Part shown: piece after piece, positions 36,408 through 43,707 of the stretch
Numbering within the stretch: the first letter of the stretch is position 1
Layout of the letters: each line of letters starts with the position of its first letter
Notes under the pieces: generated by a model
Databases searched by the model: none
Told to the model about the DNA's origin: nothing
The model's input: the letters and a program-made list of their open reading frames with translations, nothing else
DNA from: a virus
Taxonomy: Duplodnaviria; Heunggongvirae; Uroviricota; Caudoviricetes
Strand: one strand, 5' to 3'
Virus record (IMG/VR): IMGVR_UViG_3300029305_003072
Length of the DNA stretch: 47,814 nucleotides
Position numbers and translations under genes: made by a program

Positions 36408-39400
36408 ATGGCACAAGTAAATGATTTACTCGTCCTTGGAAAAGCTAATTTTTTAAATGAGATAACTTCTTCTCAATTATTAAGAGCCTTTGGCGGTATT
36501 GCAGTAGATAGTTCAACTGAAGAATCTACATCTTTACCTTATTTTTTAGGTATTAAAGCTTTTGCTGATGGTGGCAATGTTGTTTGGTCTAGTCCCACGA
36601 ATACAGCTAATGTAATTAGACTTAATGCTTCTGGAACTTGGCCTATTAGTATTAGTGGTCTTGCCGCAAAAGCAACCGCTGATGCAAATGGAAGTACTAT
36701 CACTTCTACTTATGCGAAGTTAAAATCTTATAATGATATGATTCATTCTACAAATGAATATACATTTGCATCTCCGGCTTATTCTGGAGCCATTTGGATT
36801 AACTATCGAACTGCAAGTGGAGCAACTGATGGTAATATTACTACTTATAATTTTGGTAATGGTAAAGGCGGAACTGCAGGAGTTACTCTTGTGGCAACAA
36901 CTTTTAATGGCAATGCTACCAGCGCTAATTATGCAACTTCTGCTGGTAATGCAAACACTTTAGATAATATTGATTCTACTGGATTCTTAAGATATTACAA
37001 TAGTAATACTGCAATATCATCTACTGAAGTTGTTAATACTCCATCTTATGTACATACGGTTAGTACAACAGGTGGAAATATTACAACATCTGTGAAACCC
37101 TCTGGCATGAACAATGCATGGGGACTTATTCACTTACATACTCATACTGGTAATTACGCTACCTAGTTAGGTTTCGGTGGCACAACTGGAAATTTATATA
37201 TGCGCAATGCTTATAATTCTGCAACTTTTGGTAGTTGGAAAACTATTCTTGATTCTGGAAACTGGACAAGCATTGTCGATGGAAGATATTTAAAATTATC
37301 AGGCGGAACAATGACTGGCTTAGTGTCATATAAAACCACAAATTATACTTCTACTCCAATGGCAATATATGATGACGGAACAAATTATGGACATAGCTTA
37401 GTTATTGGTGCTGGCGGCACTACTTATATTGGAGCTGGTGAGGCTGCTAGTACTTTATATTCAACAAAACTAAAAGTTACTTCTACTGAGGATTTAATTC
37501 TCGGTGCAGACAGTAATATTAGATTTCATACGAATGCAGATAATGCAACCACCACGAATGGAGTAACTCTTAATACCTCCAATTATTTTTATCCATAGAC
37601 AACTAACACTGGTAGTGTTGGTACTTCTGGTAATAAATGGGGTTCCATGTATGCCACAACCTTTTATGGAGCTTTAAGTGGTAATGCTACAACAGCTAGT
37701 GCTTTAACTCCGATTACTACAAATGATTTAGCTTCTAGTAGTACGACTAAAAGACGCATTTGGTTTTGTTATGATAATAATACAACAGGTCGACCTGCTT
37801 ATGATGATAGATTTACAATTCAAACTTCTACTGGAACATTATTTGCTCCAATTTTTAGTGGTAATTTAAGTGGTAATGCAACAACAGCAACTACTGCCAA
37901 TGCCTTAGCAAGTACTGGTTATGGTAATGGTAATTTTACTTGGTTTCAAACTTCTGGAGAGTTCGCTGGCAATAGCGGATGGGCATCTTATTTAGTTTCT
38001 AATCATGGAGATGGCTCTAGTTATTATCATTAGATTATTGCTATACCATTTTGGGATCCTCCAAAATATCGCCGCATGGAGGGTAATACTAGTACCGTTA
38101 AAGGCTGGTATGATTTTATTACTGATGAAAATTATACTACCAAGTTAGATGCTCGATATTACACCGAAGCAGAAGCCGATAGCCGTTTTGTAAATGTAAC
38201 TGGCGATTCCATGAGTGGAACGTTAAGTTGGAGCGGAAATATTTCAAGTTTAAATTTCCGCACTGGACATAGTGATTATGATGGTGTAATTAGTTATCAA
38301 ACAAGTGGTAATGAAGCTATGTTATTTACTACTAAAAACGTAGTTACGAGTTTTATGTTTGTTAATGGTGAAGACACTATTACTAATATGGCTGCTGATA
38401 GATGGACTAAAATAACTCCCGGTTTACAAATTAAAAATAATTGTGTTGCGATTGGTAAATTAATTGCTAATGGTAGTACTCCCAGTTATAAACTAGAAGT
38501 AGCTGGAATGACATATTCTTCAGGTCGTTACTTATCTGAAACAGTACCTTCTTCTTGGATTGATGGTTAGCGTTATAATAACGGTGCTTATAATGTAAAT
38601 ACTTATTCTAATGATGGCAGCTATAATCCTTGGATACGTGCAACTAATAGTCATGCTAATGTTGCTAAGTGGTTTAGTTTTGGTACATTAGGCAAACAAT
38701 TTTATTGGATTGGTTCTACTACGAGTCGTACTGAAAATAGTTATGATAAAGGTATGTCATTTAATGTTGAATCTGGTTTATTATATGCTCCAATTGTTGG
38801 TGGCGATAGAATTTATACTGGCTATGATGCTGGAGTAACTGGCTCTGTATCTTGTTCTAATTGGTTCCGTTCAAGTGGCGCAACAGGTTGGTATAATGCT
38901 TCTTATGGTAATCATTTATACCCAAATACTGTAACAGGTTATGGCGGTTTTATGATGTATGGTAATGTTAGAGGTGGATATGAAGGCATTATTCTTGGTA
39001 ATAGTACTAGTTATATGACATTGATGTCAAGTGACCCTCATCAAGGATTGTATAATGAAGCAAAAGGACGTTGGATTATTTATTATAATAAAACTAATAA
39101 TCAAACTTCTGTAAATGGCGCTTAGACTTCAGCAACAGCTTTTCCATTTACTATTTTTGGTGCAACTTATATTGATGGTCGTTTGGTTGTAAAAGGCAAT
39201 GGTTCTTCTTATAATGAAGGTATTCGTGTTTTACCTGCATCAAATGGATGGTCTAACTTATTCTTCTCTGGAACGAATACTGTAGAAGGCACTCATGATG
39301 GCGGTTGGTTAATCGGTCGTAGGGGAACAGCTGGAAGTACTTATGGTGCAGTTGGAGATTTCTGTATTGAAAATAATAATAGTGTTGGAAGTAATTTAAC

Positions 39401-39935
39401 GTTAACTAAAGCTGGTATTTTAGTTAATATTGGACCAATCTTTGGCTATAGATATAAACAAACTAGTAATGGCGCTGCTTTTATGTGGGATAAACCTGGT
39501 AGTAATTACACTGGTATGGGCGCTAATGATTCTAGTGACACTATTCAATTTAGAGCTTGCGATATCGCTGGTAATTGGGTAGATTATAAACAACATTGGA
39601 ATTTCTATGGTGATTTATTTGCTTATGGCGCAAGATTTGCAAATAGAGGTACTTCAACATCTACTTCTGCTTATAGTGATTCAGCAGTTGAAATTCGTGA
39701 ATACGGTTTTGGCGGCGCTCAATCTGATACTTGGGGAGTTGCTCCTCGTTTAAGTTTCCATTGGAGTGGACGTGTTGCAGCGCAAATAGGTCTTGCTTCT
39801 AACGGTAAATTATATATCAATAATAATACTCAAGGAAGTACTACATTCTTACAAATTGTCGGTATGACTGGCTATGGTACTGCAGCCCCATCTGGTGCAG
39901 CTCCTGCTGGTTCAGTTTATTTTAAATATAGTTAA
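36408..39935 (+). CDS. Long tail fibre protein, cassette 3 (1175 aa, TAG=Gln)
   Basis: 5 TAG (37164, 37596, 38031, 38568, 39123) join six track ORFs. The N-terminus MAQVNDLLVLG resembles MAQLRDLIVNG of 31694, with repeated GNATTA, WKTILDSGN and YLKLSGGTMTG motifs. Confidence 0.8.
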
Positions 39936-39947
39936 CTAATTAATTGT

Positions 39948-39993
39948 ATACCTGAAAGATGCTTAAAAAAGTATCTTTCAGGTATTTTTTTTT
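39948..39993 (+). terminator. Intrinsic terminator ending the fibre region
   Basis: ATACCTGAAAGATGCT-loop-AGTATCTTTCAGGTAT followed by a T-run. Confidence 0.8.
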
Positions 39994-40022: not shown

Positions 40023-40150
40023 GAGGTCCTCAAAAAGAATTGTCCCAACACAAAAATAATCTTTATTCCCTCCTAAAATGGCATTCTCGAGGTCCTAGTG
40101 GGAACTCGTCTCGGTCCCCGGTTGGTCAATTTAGATTAATTTTTCGGTCC
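40023..40150 (+). repeat. Cluster of co-oriented GGTCC repeats in non-coding DNA
   Basis: GGTCC at 40025, 40091, 40113 and 40146 (as GAGGTCCT twice and TCGGTCC twice), plus GGTCA at 40124. Confidence 0.55.
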
Positions 40151-40171
40151 TAATTTTCACTATACTATGAG
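40122..40171 (+). promoter_or_regulatory. Recurrent upstream motif copy 5 (TTGGTC-N38-TATGAG)
   Basis: Upstream of the six-gene operon, contains AGATTA. Confidence 0.4.
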
Positions 40172-40216
40172 GGGATGGATAATGAAAATTTTTTGTATGG
40201 AAAGGAGACCTTACAT

Positions 40217-40657
40217 ATGTATTCCAACTATAATTATTATCCACAGCAACCTACACAGACTCCACAAGTCACCCAATAGCAATCAATGTACTAGATGCCC
40301 TATTTACGACAGGCGCCGCCGCAAACAGGACTGAAAGGCCGTTTGGTTAGTTCATTGGAAGAGGCCCGTGCAACCTCTATTGACTTCGATGGTTCTGTAT
40401 TCTATTTTCCAGATTTGGCGAACAAACGAATCTACACAAAACAAATAAATATGGATGGTACCGCTACATTATGTATGTATGAATTAAGGGAATTACCCAT
40501 TGAAAAAGAAGAGAGCGCTGTATTGCCATCCGTTGAGAAATTTGTAACGAGAGAAGAGTTTGAGCGGGTCTTGGAGTATATTAAATCACTTCAAAAGCCA
40601 ACCGAGCCGGCCGCACCCGCCCCGCAGAAACAGAAAGTAGAAATTTTATCATTCTAA
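40217..40657 (+). CDS. Six-gene module gene 1: hypothetical, Gln/Pro/Tyr-rich N-terminus (146 aa, TAG=Gln)
   Basis: RBS AAAGGAG before ATG 40217. Two TAG (40277, 40292) sit inside a Q-rich tract (VTQ*QSMY*MPY). The core reads GRLVSSLEEARA..IDFDGS.FYFPD..KRIY.KQ. Confidence 0.8.
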
Positions 40658-40667
40658 GGAGGTATGA

Positions 40668-40922
40668 ATGATGTATCCAGTAGACCCAAATGTTTTAATT
40701 CAAATGATTAAATCCGGGCGGAATCCTCAACAGTTGATGTTATCAATTTTACAAGGACAAGCCTATAACAATCCCCTCGGAAAAAATCTCCTAAATTTAG
40801 CTCAACAAGGTCGAACCGACGAACTAGAGAAAGTAGTTCGTAATATTTACGCTCAATAGGGCGGTTCTAATTTCGACCAGGAGTTCGAAGCCTTTAAACG
40901 TGCATTAGGCTATCAAAATTAA
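40668..40922 (+). CDS. Six-gene module gene 2: hypothetical helical protein (84 aa, TAG=Gln)
   Basis: RBS AAGGAGG, TAG at 40857, and reading continues to TAA at 40920-40922. Confidence 0.75.
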
Positions 40923-40942
40923 AATTTAAGGAGGACACAATT

Positions 40943-41665
40943 ATGTTTAATGGAAAAGGTTACAATTTATCTGATATCGCTGCTGTAACTGGTAATCGCA
41001 ATGGCGATGGTATGTGGGGCGATAATGGCTGGTGGATTATCCTGTTATTCTTGTTCGCAGGATGGGGCCGCGGCGGATTTGGCGGCTTTGGTGGCGGCTA
41101 TGAAGCACCTTGTGCTACCCAAGCTGATGTCCGTGCCGCAGTTGACCAGCAAACTTTAATTTCTAAATTAGACAACCAGACTTATGGTTTGGCAGATTCT
41201 ACTTACGCATTAAATAACTCTATTATGAGTGGTTTCCATGGAGTAGATACTGCTGTTTGCACTCTTGGCTACAATATTCAGAGTGGCTTTAACACTTTAG
41301 GTCACCAGATTAGTGATTGTTGCTGCGAGACTGGCCGTGCAATTGAGCGTGGCTTTGCAGAGACTAACTATAATATGGCAACTCAGGCTTGCGACACTCG
41401 TCGCGCAATCGCAGACAGCACCCGTGACATTATTGATGCTAATAATGCTGGTGTTCGTTCTATCTTAGACTTCTTGACTAATGATAAGATTGCTACTTTG
41501 ACTGCTGATAACCAATCTTTGAAGTTCCAGGCTTCCCAGGCCGCACAGAACGCTTACTTGGTAAATCAGTTACGTCCATGCCCAGTTCCCGCTTATACCG
41601 TTCCTAATCCCTACTGCTGCAATACCTACTTTGGTGGATGCGGCAATGGTTTCGGTACTTTCTAA
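40943..41665 (+). CDS. Six-gene module gene 3: Gly/Trp-rich hydrophobic N-terminal segment plus long Cys-containing coiled coil (240 aa)
   Basis: Intact ORF with GWWIILLFLFAGWGRGGFGG, CCCET, a heptad C-terminal half and terminal RPCPVPAYTVPNPYCC. Confidence 0.85.
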   Translation: MFNGKGYNLSDIAAVTGNRNGDGMWGDNGWWIILLFLFAGWGRGGFGGFGGGYEAPCATQADVRAAVDQQTLISKLDNQTYGLADSTYALNNSIMSGFHGVDTAVCTLGYNIQSGFNTLGHQISDCCCETGRAIERGFAETNYNMATQACDTRRAIADSTRDIIDANNAGVRSILDFLTNDKIATLTADNQSLKFQASQAAQNAYLVNQLRPCPVPAYTVPNPYCCNTYFGGCGNGFGTF

Positions 41666-41684
41666 TCTAAAGGGGGTTTAATTT

Positions 41685-42104
41685 ATGGAAATTATTGCTA
41701 ATGCTCTTCAGACAGTTCCAGCAAATCAAAATGTTTATTTCACTGATACTGTGATTTGTGGTAATGCTACGATTGGTCATCGTGATGATAGTGGTTTAGT
41801 TACTCTAAGAGGTTTAACCGACCAATGCCGGGCTAGATTCCGTGTTTCTTTTGGAGCTAACATTGGACTACCAGCGGACGGAACAGTTGGCCCAATTTCT
41901 TTAGTTATTGCTATCAATGGTGAGCCTGTACGTGCTACTACTATGACAGTAACCCCAGCGGCAGTTGAGCAATTTTTCAATGTATATGCTTCTTTATATG
42001 TCGATGTTCCTCGTGGATGCTGTGTAACTATTAGTGTTCAGAATATTACAACTGATGATGTTGATGTTCAAAATGCTAATTTAATTGTTGACCGCACCGC
42101 TTGA
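41685..42104 (+). CDS. Six-gene module gene 4: all-beta protein, possibly BclA-C/C1q-TNF-like (139 aa)
   Basis: Intact ORF with an alternating beta-strand pattern (GLVTLRG..FRVSFGANI..ISLVIAINGE..TISVQN..NANLIV). The fold is inferred. Confidence 0.7.
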   Translation: MEIIANALQTVPANQNVYFTDTVICGNATIGHRDDSGLVTLRGLTDQCRARFRVSFGANIGLPADGTVGPISLVIAINGEPVRATTMTVTPAAVEQFFNVYASLYVDVPRGCCVTISVQNITTDDVDVQNANLIVDRTA

Positions 42105-42118
42105 AAGGAGGAATAAAT

Positions 42119-42754
42119 ATGCATGAAGAAAGATTAAAGCATATGAAAGAAACTCTAATGTGTGCTGTTGAAATGCAGCTATGTGATTTAGGTGAGGTAG
42201 ATACCAAAGAGCTTGGAGAAGCTATTGATATGATTAAAGATTTAGAGGAGGCAATCTACTATTGCACCGTCACTGAAGCTATGAAAGGCAATGGCTCAGA
42301 AATGGAGTTTGAAATGAAAAAAGGCGGCCATCACCAAGAGGAAAATGGTGACAGCCGCATGTATTATAGTGGCTCTCGCTATCCAATGATGTACGCCGAC
42401 GAGGGACGTCGTCGTAGAGCTGATGGAACCTTCTATAATGACCCAATGTATATGGACGGCGGGTCTGGAAATGGTACCAGTTATATGGATAACGGAACTA
42501 GTCATATGGACCGTGGAAACGGAACCATGTATCGCGATGAGCGTGAGGGCCGCAGCTACAATAGCCGCAGAATGTATATGGAAGCCAAAGATATGAAGAG
42601 AGATAAAGCTACTCAACTTCGTGAGTTAGAGAAGTATATGCAAGAGCTATCTCAAGACATCACTGAAATGATTGCGGACGCATCTCCAGAGGAGAAAGCA
42701 TATCTTGAAAAGAAGATTACCGCATTGGCTTCTAAAATCGGTCAAATGAAATGA
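42119..42754 (+). CDS. Six-gene module gene 5: hypothetical with helical ends and a Met/Tyr/Asp/Gly-rich low-complexity centre (211 aa)
   Basis: ATG 42119 after RBS AAGGAGG (the track starts at upstream TTG 42101). It has repeats MYMDGG / SYMDNG / HMDRG / MYRDE. Confidence 0.8.
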   Translation: MHEERLKHMKETLMCAVEMQLCDLGEVDTKELGEAIDMIKDLEEAIYYCTVTEAMKGNGSEMEFEMKKGGHHQEENGDSRMYYSGSRYPMMYADEGRRRRADGTFYNDPMYMDGGSGNGTSYMDNGTSHMDRGNGTMYRDEREGRSYNSRRMYMEAKDMKRDKATQLRELEKYMQELSQDITEMIADASPEEKAYLEKKITALASKIGQMK

Positions 42755-43062
42755 TTATCAATGGAGTGAGATGGCGAGTCCGAATGGTCTCGCCATCTCA
42801 TCCAATGCTACTAACCCCTTGGATGACTCATGCTCTTGGAGTTTGTGATAAAGTTACGCAAACTATTTACATAGACAAGACGCTCAAACCAGCTAAGGTT
42901 AAAGAAGTGCTATGCCACGAAATTGTTCATGCTTGTATGTTTAGCTACGCAGTAGATTTATCATACGATGAAGAGGAAATGGTAGCAGAATTAATGTCTA
43001 AATATGGAGACGAGATAATCAAATGGTCGAATAGAATTTATAATGGAATTAAAATGAAATAA
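42751..43062 (+). CDS. Six-gene module gene 6: small HExxH zinc-metallopeptidase-like protein (103 aa)
   Basis: LCHEIVHA motif with downstream EEE, and ATGA overlap with gene 5. Confidence 0.7.
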   Translation: MIINGVRWRVRMVSPSHPMLLTPWMTHALGVCDKVTQTIYIDKTLKPAKVKEVLCHEIVHACMFSYAVDLSYDEEEMVAELMSKYGDEIIKWSNRIYNGIKMK

Positions 43063-43109
43063 AAAAAGGGTCGTATATGATTTATTCATATACGACCCTT
43101 TATTTTTTT
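43061..43109. terminator. Bidirectional intrinsic terminator where the two transcription directions converge
   Basis: A-run, then GGGTCGTATATGA-tttat-TCATATACGACCC, then a T-run, between convergent stops at 43062 and 43108. Confidence 0.85.
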
Positions 43110-43707
43110 ATGTGCAAATAGCCCACCCAGTAGATGTACCATCTTTGTTAATATATGGAATAGCAACTTTCCATCCATTAGCAGTTCCATCAACATTGAC
43201 ATATGGTATTGCACTCTTCCATCCATTGGCAGTTCCATCAATATTAATGCGAACTAATCCTCCACCATTAATCACTGTACCTCCATAAGTAGAGCTATCT
43301 CCTCGGTTTCTGATAATAACAATAGTAGGATTTGATTTACGAACAAAATGAAATCTAAAAGTTACTGTTGACCCAGCGGCTACATATACTCCTCCAAATG
43401 TAAAAGTTTTTTGTTCCGTATTATAATAGTTTCCTCCGCTAGTTTTATTGCTTACAGTAATTGTATTGGACGTATGCGATGTTCCGTTAGAATCAGTAAC
43501 AGTTACATAAACATCATATGCATATCCATATCCAGTAACAGTATCTCCCTAATTGTATGTTCCATTACCTGAAGCAAGACCTATTCTGCATGCAGTTATT
43601 AGTTGAGGTGTAGAACCAGTATTTTTATATTTGAGTAAATTTCTACTATAAGTAGCATCTATGCCCTAATAAGAAAAACTCCAATCACTATGAGTACTCC
43701 ATCCCAT
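43108..43707 (-). CDS. Small fibre-associated/virion protein with C-terminal 16-aa repeats (199 aa, TAG=Gln); missing from the ORF track
   Basis: RBS AAGGAG, ATG at 43707, 2 TAG (codons 14 and 53), TAA at 43108. The C-terminus reads INIDGTANGWKSAIPY-VNVDGTANGWKVAIPY-INKDGTSTGW. Confidence 0.75.
43117..43248 (-). repeat. 48-bp tandem repeat (two full copies plus one partial) encoding the 16-aa repeat
   Basis: 43153-43200 and 43201-43248 are near-identical, and 43117-43152 is a diverged partial copy. Confidence 0.8.

Follow-up and report, generated by a model that had tools for sequence, protein, structure and literature searches.

A widespread self-contained phage cassette encoding a predicted BclA/ExsF-like jelly roll, a membrane-type helical protein and one of two putative peptidases

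Organization of the cassette and its leader

We analyzed a 47,814-nt stretch of tailed-phage DNA (Caudoviricetes; IMG/VR record IMGVR_UViG_3300029305_003072), hereafter the window, which belongs to a 105.8-kb viral genome record with an estimated completeness of 56%, and focused on a cluster of six genes, g1 to g6, located immediately after the tail-fiber genes. All coordinates are those of the window, and genes were called with TAG read as Gln. The analysis showed that this cluster, present once in the genome record, is one copy, of the HExxH type, of a self-contained cassette that is widespread in phages and consists of a core of five genes (g1-g5) and one peptidase gene. A preliminary description made from the sequence alone had seen here six coupled genes in the same orientation between two terminators, and this was borne out by the gene calls, by intergenic gaps of 10, 20, 19 and 14 nt from g1 to g5 with a 4-nt overlap between g5 and g6, and by intrinsic terminator hairpins on both sides (Table 1); terminator-like sites numbered 6 against 2.7 expected. 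The strong ribosome-binding sites ascribed to all six genes were found before g1 to g5, where they are of the GGAG type (five of six genes with a Shine-Dalgarno sequence), but not before g6, which is translationally coupled to g5 via ATGA. An ATG at 40175 is not where g1 starts, given that relative L004 is out of frame at this position and has no such codon; g5 starts at the ATG at 42119, and an apparent upstream ‘KGG’ is its ribosome-binding site, AAAGGAGG.

TAG is a sense codon in this large uncultured gut phage, as long genes such as that at 36408-39935 are open only on TAG readthrough, and relatives have Gln or TAG at the positions that correspond to the TAG codons of g1 and g2. Only these first two genes carry TAG, as had been described, with two in g1, one in g2 and none in g3 to g6. 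The absence of TAG from g3 is not a family trait, since the g3 genes of L018, L086 and L087 contain 6, 2 and 1 TAG codons, respectively. If read with the standard code, g1 would begin again at Met27, right after its second TAG (40295-40657), to give 120 aa without the Q/P/Y-rich head, and g2 (40668-40859) would stop at residue 63; the TAG at codon 64 of g2 is retained as TAG in five relatives. The TAG codons of both genes could allow code-dependent isoforms. At three other loci (L016:598-1473, L107:4139-4960 and L108:4120-4959), g3 contains an in-frame TGA at a conserved Trp (helix WW, GWG), and the phages concerned probably read TGA as Trp. The cassette would then occur under three codes, namely the standard code, TAG=Gln and probably TGA=Trp. 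With respect to composition, the GC content of the cassette is 0.40-0.44 vs. 0.33-0.36 in the flanks, and the GC content at third codon positions (GC3) is 0.33-0.41 in g1, g2, g3, g5 and g6 vs. 0.15-0.20 in the fiber and structural genes. The earlier impression that the cassette is more GC-rich than the fiber genes therefore holds overall and for the GC3 of five genes, but not for the GC3 of g4 (0.19), the only cassette gene with a structural-gene-like low value.

The recurrent motif that had been described upstream of the cassette was not confirmed. The region upstream of g1 contains instead a conserved leader that occurs nowhere else in the window or in the genome record. A promoter-like -35 hexamer TTTTCA (40154-40159) and -10 hexamer GATAAT (40178-40183) fall in the invariant blocks TCCTAATTTT and GAGGGGA, the predicted transcript start lies near 40190, and alignment with cassette copies of other phages showed that the 5′ untranslated region, which bears the ribosome-binding site GGAAAGGAG, is nearly invariant. 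Successive GGTCC boxes in this region are spaced 66, 22 and 33 nt apart, each a multiple of 11, and relative L007 has the spacing pattern 33/22/33; the sequence GGTCC is rare, with 12 occurrences on the whole 47.8-kb + strand. In addition, TAATTTT(T)C occurs twice as a direct repeat, at a distance of about 14 nt (40140-40160), and overlaps the last GGTCC box and the -35-like hexamer; both copies are invariant in five cassette copies and could form a second operator. The leader matched no RNA family in Rfam. From these features we infer that the cassette has its own promoter, which moves with it and is controlled by an activator or a repressor.

Table 1. Features of the cassette and of its borders in the window
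Feature	Position	Strand	Description
Upstream intrinsic terminator	39948-39985	+	17-bp stem followed by a T run; closes the tail-fiber operon
Four GGTCC boxes	40025, 40091, 40113, 40146 (region 40025-40150)	+	Candidate regulator binding sites, upstream of the promoter-like elements
Conserved leader	40126-40216	+	Cassette-specific; promoter-like elements and 5′ untranslated region
g1 (146 aa)	40217-40657	+	2 TAG=Gln; PHROG 21718
g2 (84 aa)	40668-40922	+	1 TAG=Gln; small, Gln-rich
g3 (240 aa)	40943-41665	+	Membrane-type helix, CCC; PHROG 16490
g4 (139 aa)	41685-42104	+	Predicted stand-alone C1q/TNF-type jelly roll; PHROG 20016
g5 (211 aa)	42119-42754	+	M/Y/D/G/R-rich low-complexity center between helical N- and C-terminal parts
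g6 (103 aa)	42751-43062	+	Minimal HExxH (HEIVH), putative zinc peptidase; PHROG 1233
Bidirectional intrinsic terminator	43065-43101	both	16-bp stem; shared with convergent leftward genes

Proteins encoded by the cassette

The product of g4 had been suspected to contain a C1q/BclA-C-like domain, and structural modeling agreed with this. The AlphaFold (AF2) model of g4, built from 68 diverse representatives, is all-beta with a predicted local distance difference test score (pLDDT) of 97.9 and forms a compact 10-strand C1q/TNF jelly roll. Its top VIA matches were the C-terminal domains (CTDs) of the exosporium proteins F-BclA (9h38, Z 17.0) and BclA (1wck, Z 16.1), both with a root-mean-square deviation (rmsd) of 1.9-2.0 Å over 122 residues, followed by EDA (Z 15.0), the C1q domain of Caprin-2 (Z 14.9) and ExsFA (7r1m, Z 14.7). 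Foldseek gave a template modeling score of 0.76, with 9h3d and 8d02 among the matches. Phage fiber knobs scored lower, at Z 9.5-12.9 (cyanophage A4, 12.9; A-1(L) fiber, 12.5; Sf6 needle knob, 9.6; PRD1 P5, 9.5). On the basis of the model, g4 is thus predicted to be a C1q/TNF jelly roll of the BclA-CTD/ExsF kind, with a structure-based identity to its matches of about 9-15%. Stand-alone phage proteins of about 140 aa with g4-like structure are numerous in BFVD. No Pfam family matched g4 at E ≤ 1, PF18573 included, and a profile of the 68 representatives, taken from 635 clusters (50% identity, E < 1e-3), had no sequence match in the PDB. Sequence conservation of g4 is strong, with 80-99% identity in the 120 best of at least ~8,000 clusters, and the neighboring fiber genes are not so conserved.

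A search among longer proteins for g3-g4 or collagen-g4 fusions yielded only a 521-aa portal fusion, P0395, which joins a portal domain (PF05133) to g4 on a 2.9-kb contig. In a second odd form, P0130 (196 aa), the first ~66 residues of the Cys peptidase described below are joined to g4 from about residue 10. Both are probably deletions or gene-call artefacts, and apart from them g4 is a separate gene throughout. An 883-aa protein with 14 matched stretches in the g4 search, P0259, is a low-complexity repeat protein and was disregarded.

The g3 protein contains one hydrophobic helix, GWWIILLFLFAGW (residues 29-41), with Gly/Trp-rich flanks and a conserved N-terminal tail before it, and 10 Cys residues. 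The Gly/Trp hydrophobic segment and the Cys richness noted earlier were thus confirmed. The same cannot be said of the proposed long coiled coil: long helices were predicted at residues 61-110 and 123-210, but with low confidence (AlphaFold pLDDT 48.6), and the hydrophobic periodicity is 3.65 and 4.55, with no clean heptad. Across 44 diverse g3 sequences, representing three genetic codes, CCC126-128 and Q202 are invariant, and RDI161-163, ASQ..QN, the prolines P214, P216 and P223 and a terminal GCG are also conserved. The C-terminal part consists of a Pro-rich tail, LRPCPVPAYTVPNPY, with the consensus P-x-P-[AS]-[YF]-x-V-x-x-P-Y and conserved prolines in LRPxPxPxY..NPY, followed by a Cys/Gly end. 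The hydrophobic helix is found in g3 only, as the other five proteins have neither a signal peptide nor a hydrophobic segment. PDB sequence searches with g3 gave nothing meaningful, and in the ESM Atlas both g3 and g1 matched only unnamed viral clusters without structures.

The remaining components fit their first description as a Q/P/Y-rich protein (g1), a small protein (g2), an M/Y/D/G low-complexity protein (g5) and an HExxH protein with the motif HEIVH (g6). In g1, the Q/P/Y-rich N-terminus is accompanied by a conserved domain of ~60 aa and a helix, VTREEFERV. The g6 motif has the consensus LcHE..HA in 31 distinct homologs, and in g6 it is followed by a Glu-rich stretch. The protein stays below the Pfam thresholds for DUF6782 (22.2 bits vs. 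27), M78 (18.1 vs. 22) and SprT (16.8 vs. 25.6) and matches PHROG 1233, a family without known function, at 2.6e-15; judged by its motif, g6 is a putative zinc peptidase. Other copies of the cassette encode instead a protein of ~150 aa, designated CysP, with a conserved GDC...HVV...D.W.S pattern (Cys...His...Asp) that is compatible with a papain-like triad. PDB sequence searches with g6 and CysP gave nothing meaningful.

The profile searches of the curated collections did not assign the cassette to a characterized pathway. No family in Pfam, NCBIfam or PADLOC exceeded its threshold for the six proteins or for those of the cassette type with CysP (type B), and PHROGs gave only families of unknown function. 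Our literature search found no described function for the cassette and no virion proteomics of a cassette-bearing phage. A paper on the A-ENA ‘sporesilk’ turned out to be unrelated to it.

Distribution, peptidase exchange and inheritance

To survey synteny, a census was carried out with iterative hidden Markov models for eight families over 115 loci, allowing three genetic codes. Two architectures covered almost all of them: g1-g2-g3-g4-g5-HExxH in 25 loci, including the present window, and CysP-g1-g2-g3-g4-g5-(g7) in 80 loci, among them those of Butyrivibrio phage Ceridwen and of Dulem virus 33. The order g1-g5 was colinear in at least 100 loci, and g3 adjoined g4 in 82 of 83 loci by tblastn. 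Each of g3 and g4 is represented by at least ~8,000 clusters at 90% identity in public metagenomes, all unnamed, and few gene modules of gut and rumen phages that lack an explanation are as common. The binned hosts are mostly Clostridia. The earlier statement that such a gene set recurs in gut Clostridia phages was therefore correct, and the set recurs as a dedicated unit. Ceridwen has been seen only in a lytic cycle, and its authors hold it to be virulent (PMC7372960).

The two peptidases were never found together. HExxH was present in 25 loci, CysP in 80 and both in none of the 115; after dereplication by g4 at 90% identity, 20 clusters carried HExxH and 12 CysP, so that all 32 informative clusters carried one and none carried both. 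Neither peptidase was found in 10 loci, most of them truncated contigs or divergent Clostridium perfringens or Bacteroides forms, and in L011 g6 and part of g5 are lost. Proteolysis looks integral to the cassette because unrelated peptidases replace each other, at opposite ends of an otherwise colinear gene order, and the earlier idea of a protease-matured product gains support from this pattern.

Colinear cassettes are carried by ~40-kb siphophages, a crAss-like phage, a 74-kb Bacteroides phage and ~200-kb phages, the virion modules of which are unrelated. In small phages the cassette follows the lysis genes (holin, endolysin) or lies beside an integrase gene, outside the structural block and separately terminated. 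Divergent versions were also found. In C. perfringens phage CPD1, g1 and g2 are followed by an HNH gene and g3, and a 125-aa protein stands where g4 would be expected; the plaque-isolated Bacteroides uniformis phage C3_41T2LP has g3 followed by beta-rich and R/D-rich proteins and a ‘PolyVal’ HExxH peptidase; and crAss-like phage cr116_1 has g3 downstream of its holin and endolysin genes. Since g3 is kept in all three, it is the universal core of the cassette as well as its most widely shared gene. The 125-aa protein of CPD1 (L003:5517-5894) has a Cys-rich N-terminus, MTCNRRCNCCNRR, and a beta-rich body and resembles an endospore appendage protein in outline; an ‘Ena-like’ reading was dropped, as Pfam gave no Ena/DUF3992 or other family, and hhalign found no relation to the g4 profile. 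Four unrelated phages have an HNH or I-HmuI-type endonuclease gene within or directly next to the cassette (L002:6443-7306, L003:4158-4808, L113:2892-3512 and L001:4413-4964): in Ceridwen it separates g4 from g5, in CPD1 it separates g2 from g3, and in the other two, C3_41T2LP and Dulem virus 33, it lies upstream of g3.

In the large-phage lineage, the cassette always follows the fiber genes and is convergent with an m156-RuvC-dUTPase block. Given that this position is kept in relatives down to 26-60% RuvC/dut identity and that the cassette proteins have diverged similarly, the comparison points to an old, vertically inherited unit and not to a recent moron. The cassette does have the promoter-like leader of its own and the terminators on both sides that are expected of a moron, but not the patchy or temperate-only presence, being syntenic in relatives and found in lytic-only phages. 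Exchange has taken place within it, as the g3 proteins of L007 and L011 are 44-48% identical and their neighboring genes 66-87%. In the window, a TAG-containing minus-strand gene of 199 aa (43108-43707), with a C-terminal tandem repeat of the DGTANGWK type, sits between the shared terminator and the m156 gene. By tblastn it was matched in none of the related loci, in which the cassette and m156 are direct neighbors, and it therefore looks like a lineage-specific insertion.

Possible functions and comparison with known systems

We favor, tentatively and at somewhat less than even confidence, the view that the cassette encodes a protease-matured, membrane-anchored stalk-and-knob assembly made late in infection. 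A regulator would bind the phased GGTCC boxes and switch the unit on, probably late in infection. The g3 protein would insert in the cytoplasmic membrane and oligomerize into a cysteine-studded helical stalk, and g4 would form trimers that serve as adaptor or knob, in parallel with ExsF. The clefts of the ExsF trimer clamp leader peptides rich in Pro once residues 1-19 of BclA have been cleaved off (PMC12357932); by analogy, g4 might clasp either a low-complexity protein of the cassette or the Pro-rich g3 tail. During assembly, g6 would trim one component, a step that would fall to the papain-like Cys peptidase in the other cassette type, and g1, g2 and g5 may serve as low-complexity assembly or matrix factors. 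Given that five of the proteins lack an export signal, the assembly would be made in the cytoplasm, and an extracellular role would need lysis; the same finding speaks against a secreted surface spike, unless the proteins are set free by lysis. The expected product would be a membrane-associated assembly inside the infected cell that serves lytic growth at the envelope, whether in egress, in controlling lysis or in preventing re-adsorption, and would be neither spore-coat cargo nor a host-range fiber.

Several observations weigh against this proposal. In near-identical type-B cassettes, the last 60 residues of g3 alternate between two tail classes while g4 stays 91-98% identical, and the tail motif is kept in C. 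perfringens and Bacteroides phages without detectable g4. These two findings weaken a specific pairing of the g3 tail with g4, and the tail may therefore bind something other than g4. The late timing is deduced from gene position and TAG content, and the GC3 of most of the cassette resembles that of TAG-free early-type genes. That g4 is a trimer and g3 an oligomer is assumed. With its poor pLDDT, the model of g3 is unfit for a fold search, the hydrophobic periodicity of the protein does not favor a regular coiled coil, and the charges flanking its helix do not decide the topology by the positive-inside rule. Finally, no cassette protein matched the exosporium-leader (TIGR03720, NCBIfam) or BclA_C profiles.

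A bolder version, possible but on the doubtful side in our judgment, is that the cassette represents a new, protease-matured structure built by phages, with a membrane-anchored and cysteine-cross-linked stalk, an ExsF/BclA-like trimer as its cap and a low-complexity matrix, that is shared by Clostridia and Bacteroides phages under three genetic codes and controls a general late step. If true, it would be a phage counterpart of exosporium-type self-assembly, and the late step could be, e.g., egress, lysis timing or the protection of progeny from re-adsorption.

Alternatively, the cassette may encode a virion accessory, with a g3 stalk and g4 knob forming a decoration or side fiber, g1, g2 and g5 acting as chaperones and g6 as maturation protease. 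This would suit its place directly after the tail-fiber genes, with which it is inherited in the large-phage lineage, as well as the structural-gene-like codon usage of g4, the occurrence of TNF/C1q knobs on many phage fibers and spikes (A4, A-1(L), Sf6, PRD1 P5), the lack of export signals that is usual for virion proteins, and the TAG codons in g1, g2 and relatives’ g3, which fit late genes. We nevertheless consider it unlikely, as the same colinear cassette stands beside unrelated virion modules in phages from ~40 kb to ~200 kb, lies outside the structural block and is separately terminated in small phages, encodes a membrane-type hydrophobic helix in g3 and a g4 conserved well beyond usual receptor-binding knobs, and showed no fused stalk-knob form among the longer proteins.

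Another explanation, to which we give a rather low probability, is a conflict module, i.e., a membrane device directed against superinfection, re-adsorption to debris or host defense, with the peptidase as effector or activator. Phage conflict systems often include small HExxH peptidases of the M78/SprT/PolyVal kind, and a self-contained unit with its own promoter-like leader and terminators would be in keeping with such a role, as would the mosaic g3 alleles, the swapping of the g3 tail between classes, the homing endonucleases in or beside the cassette in four phages and its place beside the integrase gene in temperate phages. Against it, 10 cassette proteins of both types matched none of the 5,027 PADLOC models (PADLOC-DB 2.0, E ≤ 0.1), inheritance in the large-phage lineage is stably syntenic and not patchy, the strong conservation of g4 is unexpected at an arms-race interface, and the cassette is present in phages known from the lytic cycle only.

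The spore/coat connection raised in the preliminary description, in which mother-cell-made proteins would be built into the coat or exosporium as conversion cargo, perhaps together with a CotH-like kinase, is very improbable and is largely refuted as a general function: although F-BclA, BclA and ExsFA, among the best structural matches of g4, are exosporium proteins, the Cys-rich and Tyr/Gly-rich partners without signal peptides resemble coat proteins and the binned hosts are mostly Clostridia, a complete cassette is present in phage Ceridwen, with lytic growth only and a host from the non-sporulating genus Butyrivibrio, the g3 core occurs with an HExxH peptidase in a B. uniformis phage and also in a crAss-like phage, five complete genomes of phages with the cassette lack CotH (PF08757), no BclA_C, exosporium-leader or coat-family profile was matched, and the leader is not recognizably a sporulation promoter (no formal test made).

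The cassette spans host phyla, virion types and genetic codes, and neither curated families nor the defense catalog explains it. The presence of one of two unrelated peptidases, the promoter region of its own and the vertical inheritance in the large-phage lineage make the question testable, and cultured phage-host pairs exist in Ceridwen with B. fibrisolvens, C3_41T2LP with B. uniformis and CPD1-like phages with C. perfringens.

Among known systems, the two-component spanins Rz/Rz1 and the T4 holin T invite comparison. In outline, g3 looks like an i-spanin or a T-type holin, with a transmembrane helix near the N-terminus, an extended helical domain and conserved Cys; a Pro-rich segment is a further likeness to Rz1, and several small phages carry the cassette downstream of their holin and endolysin genes. 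No similarity was found at the sequence or profile level, however, and the cassette differs from spanins in having no lipoprotein partner (no lipobox-type segment), five extra soluble proteins and hosts that are mostly monoderm Clostridia. The TNF-superfamily ligands, which are type II proteins shed by metalloproteases, offer an architectural analogy only: they share an N-terminal anchor, a stalk, a C-terminal TNF-homology trimer and the involvement of a zinc protease, whereas the cassette splits this architecture over two genes, shows no sequence relation and has a g4 without an export signal. Viruses commonly place a trimeric knob on an elongated stalk, and the knobs of phage fibers and spikes (A4, A-1(L), Sf6, PRD1 P5, TM4 gp23) have the fold class of g4 in common; in the window, moreover, the cassette adjoins fiber genes. 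Those knobs are fused to their stalks and variable, in contrast to g4, which is a separate and strongly conserved gene with a presumed stalk that carries a membrane helix, and their structural scores (Z 9.5-12.9) are lower than those of the exosporium proteins.

The comparison with ExsF/ExsFA/BxpB and its partners BclA and F-Anchor of the Bacillus cereus-group exosporium (7r1m, 8d02, 9h3d, 1wck, 9h38) has clear limits. Sequence identity is only 12-15%, PF18573 and TIGR03720 are not matched, and the cassette has no collagen stalk; its partner protein g3 is membrane-anchored and helical, with the Pro motif at the C-terminus and not at the N-terminus; and the cassette is phage-encoded and occurs also in phages of non-sporulating and Gram-negative hosts. 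For ExsF itself, a TNF-like trimer of ~150-170 aa was compared with the 139-aa g4, the trimer of which is assumed, and fold and size agree at 12% identity. Set against these differences are the agreement in fold with a stand-alone protein of ~140 aa (Z 14.7-17.0, rmsd about 2 Å over 122-129 residues), a partner with a conserved Pro-rich peptide, and proteolysis as part of the module. If an ExsF-like docking proves true, phage biology would be connected with the chemistry by which spore surfaces assemble themselves.

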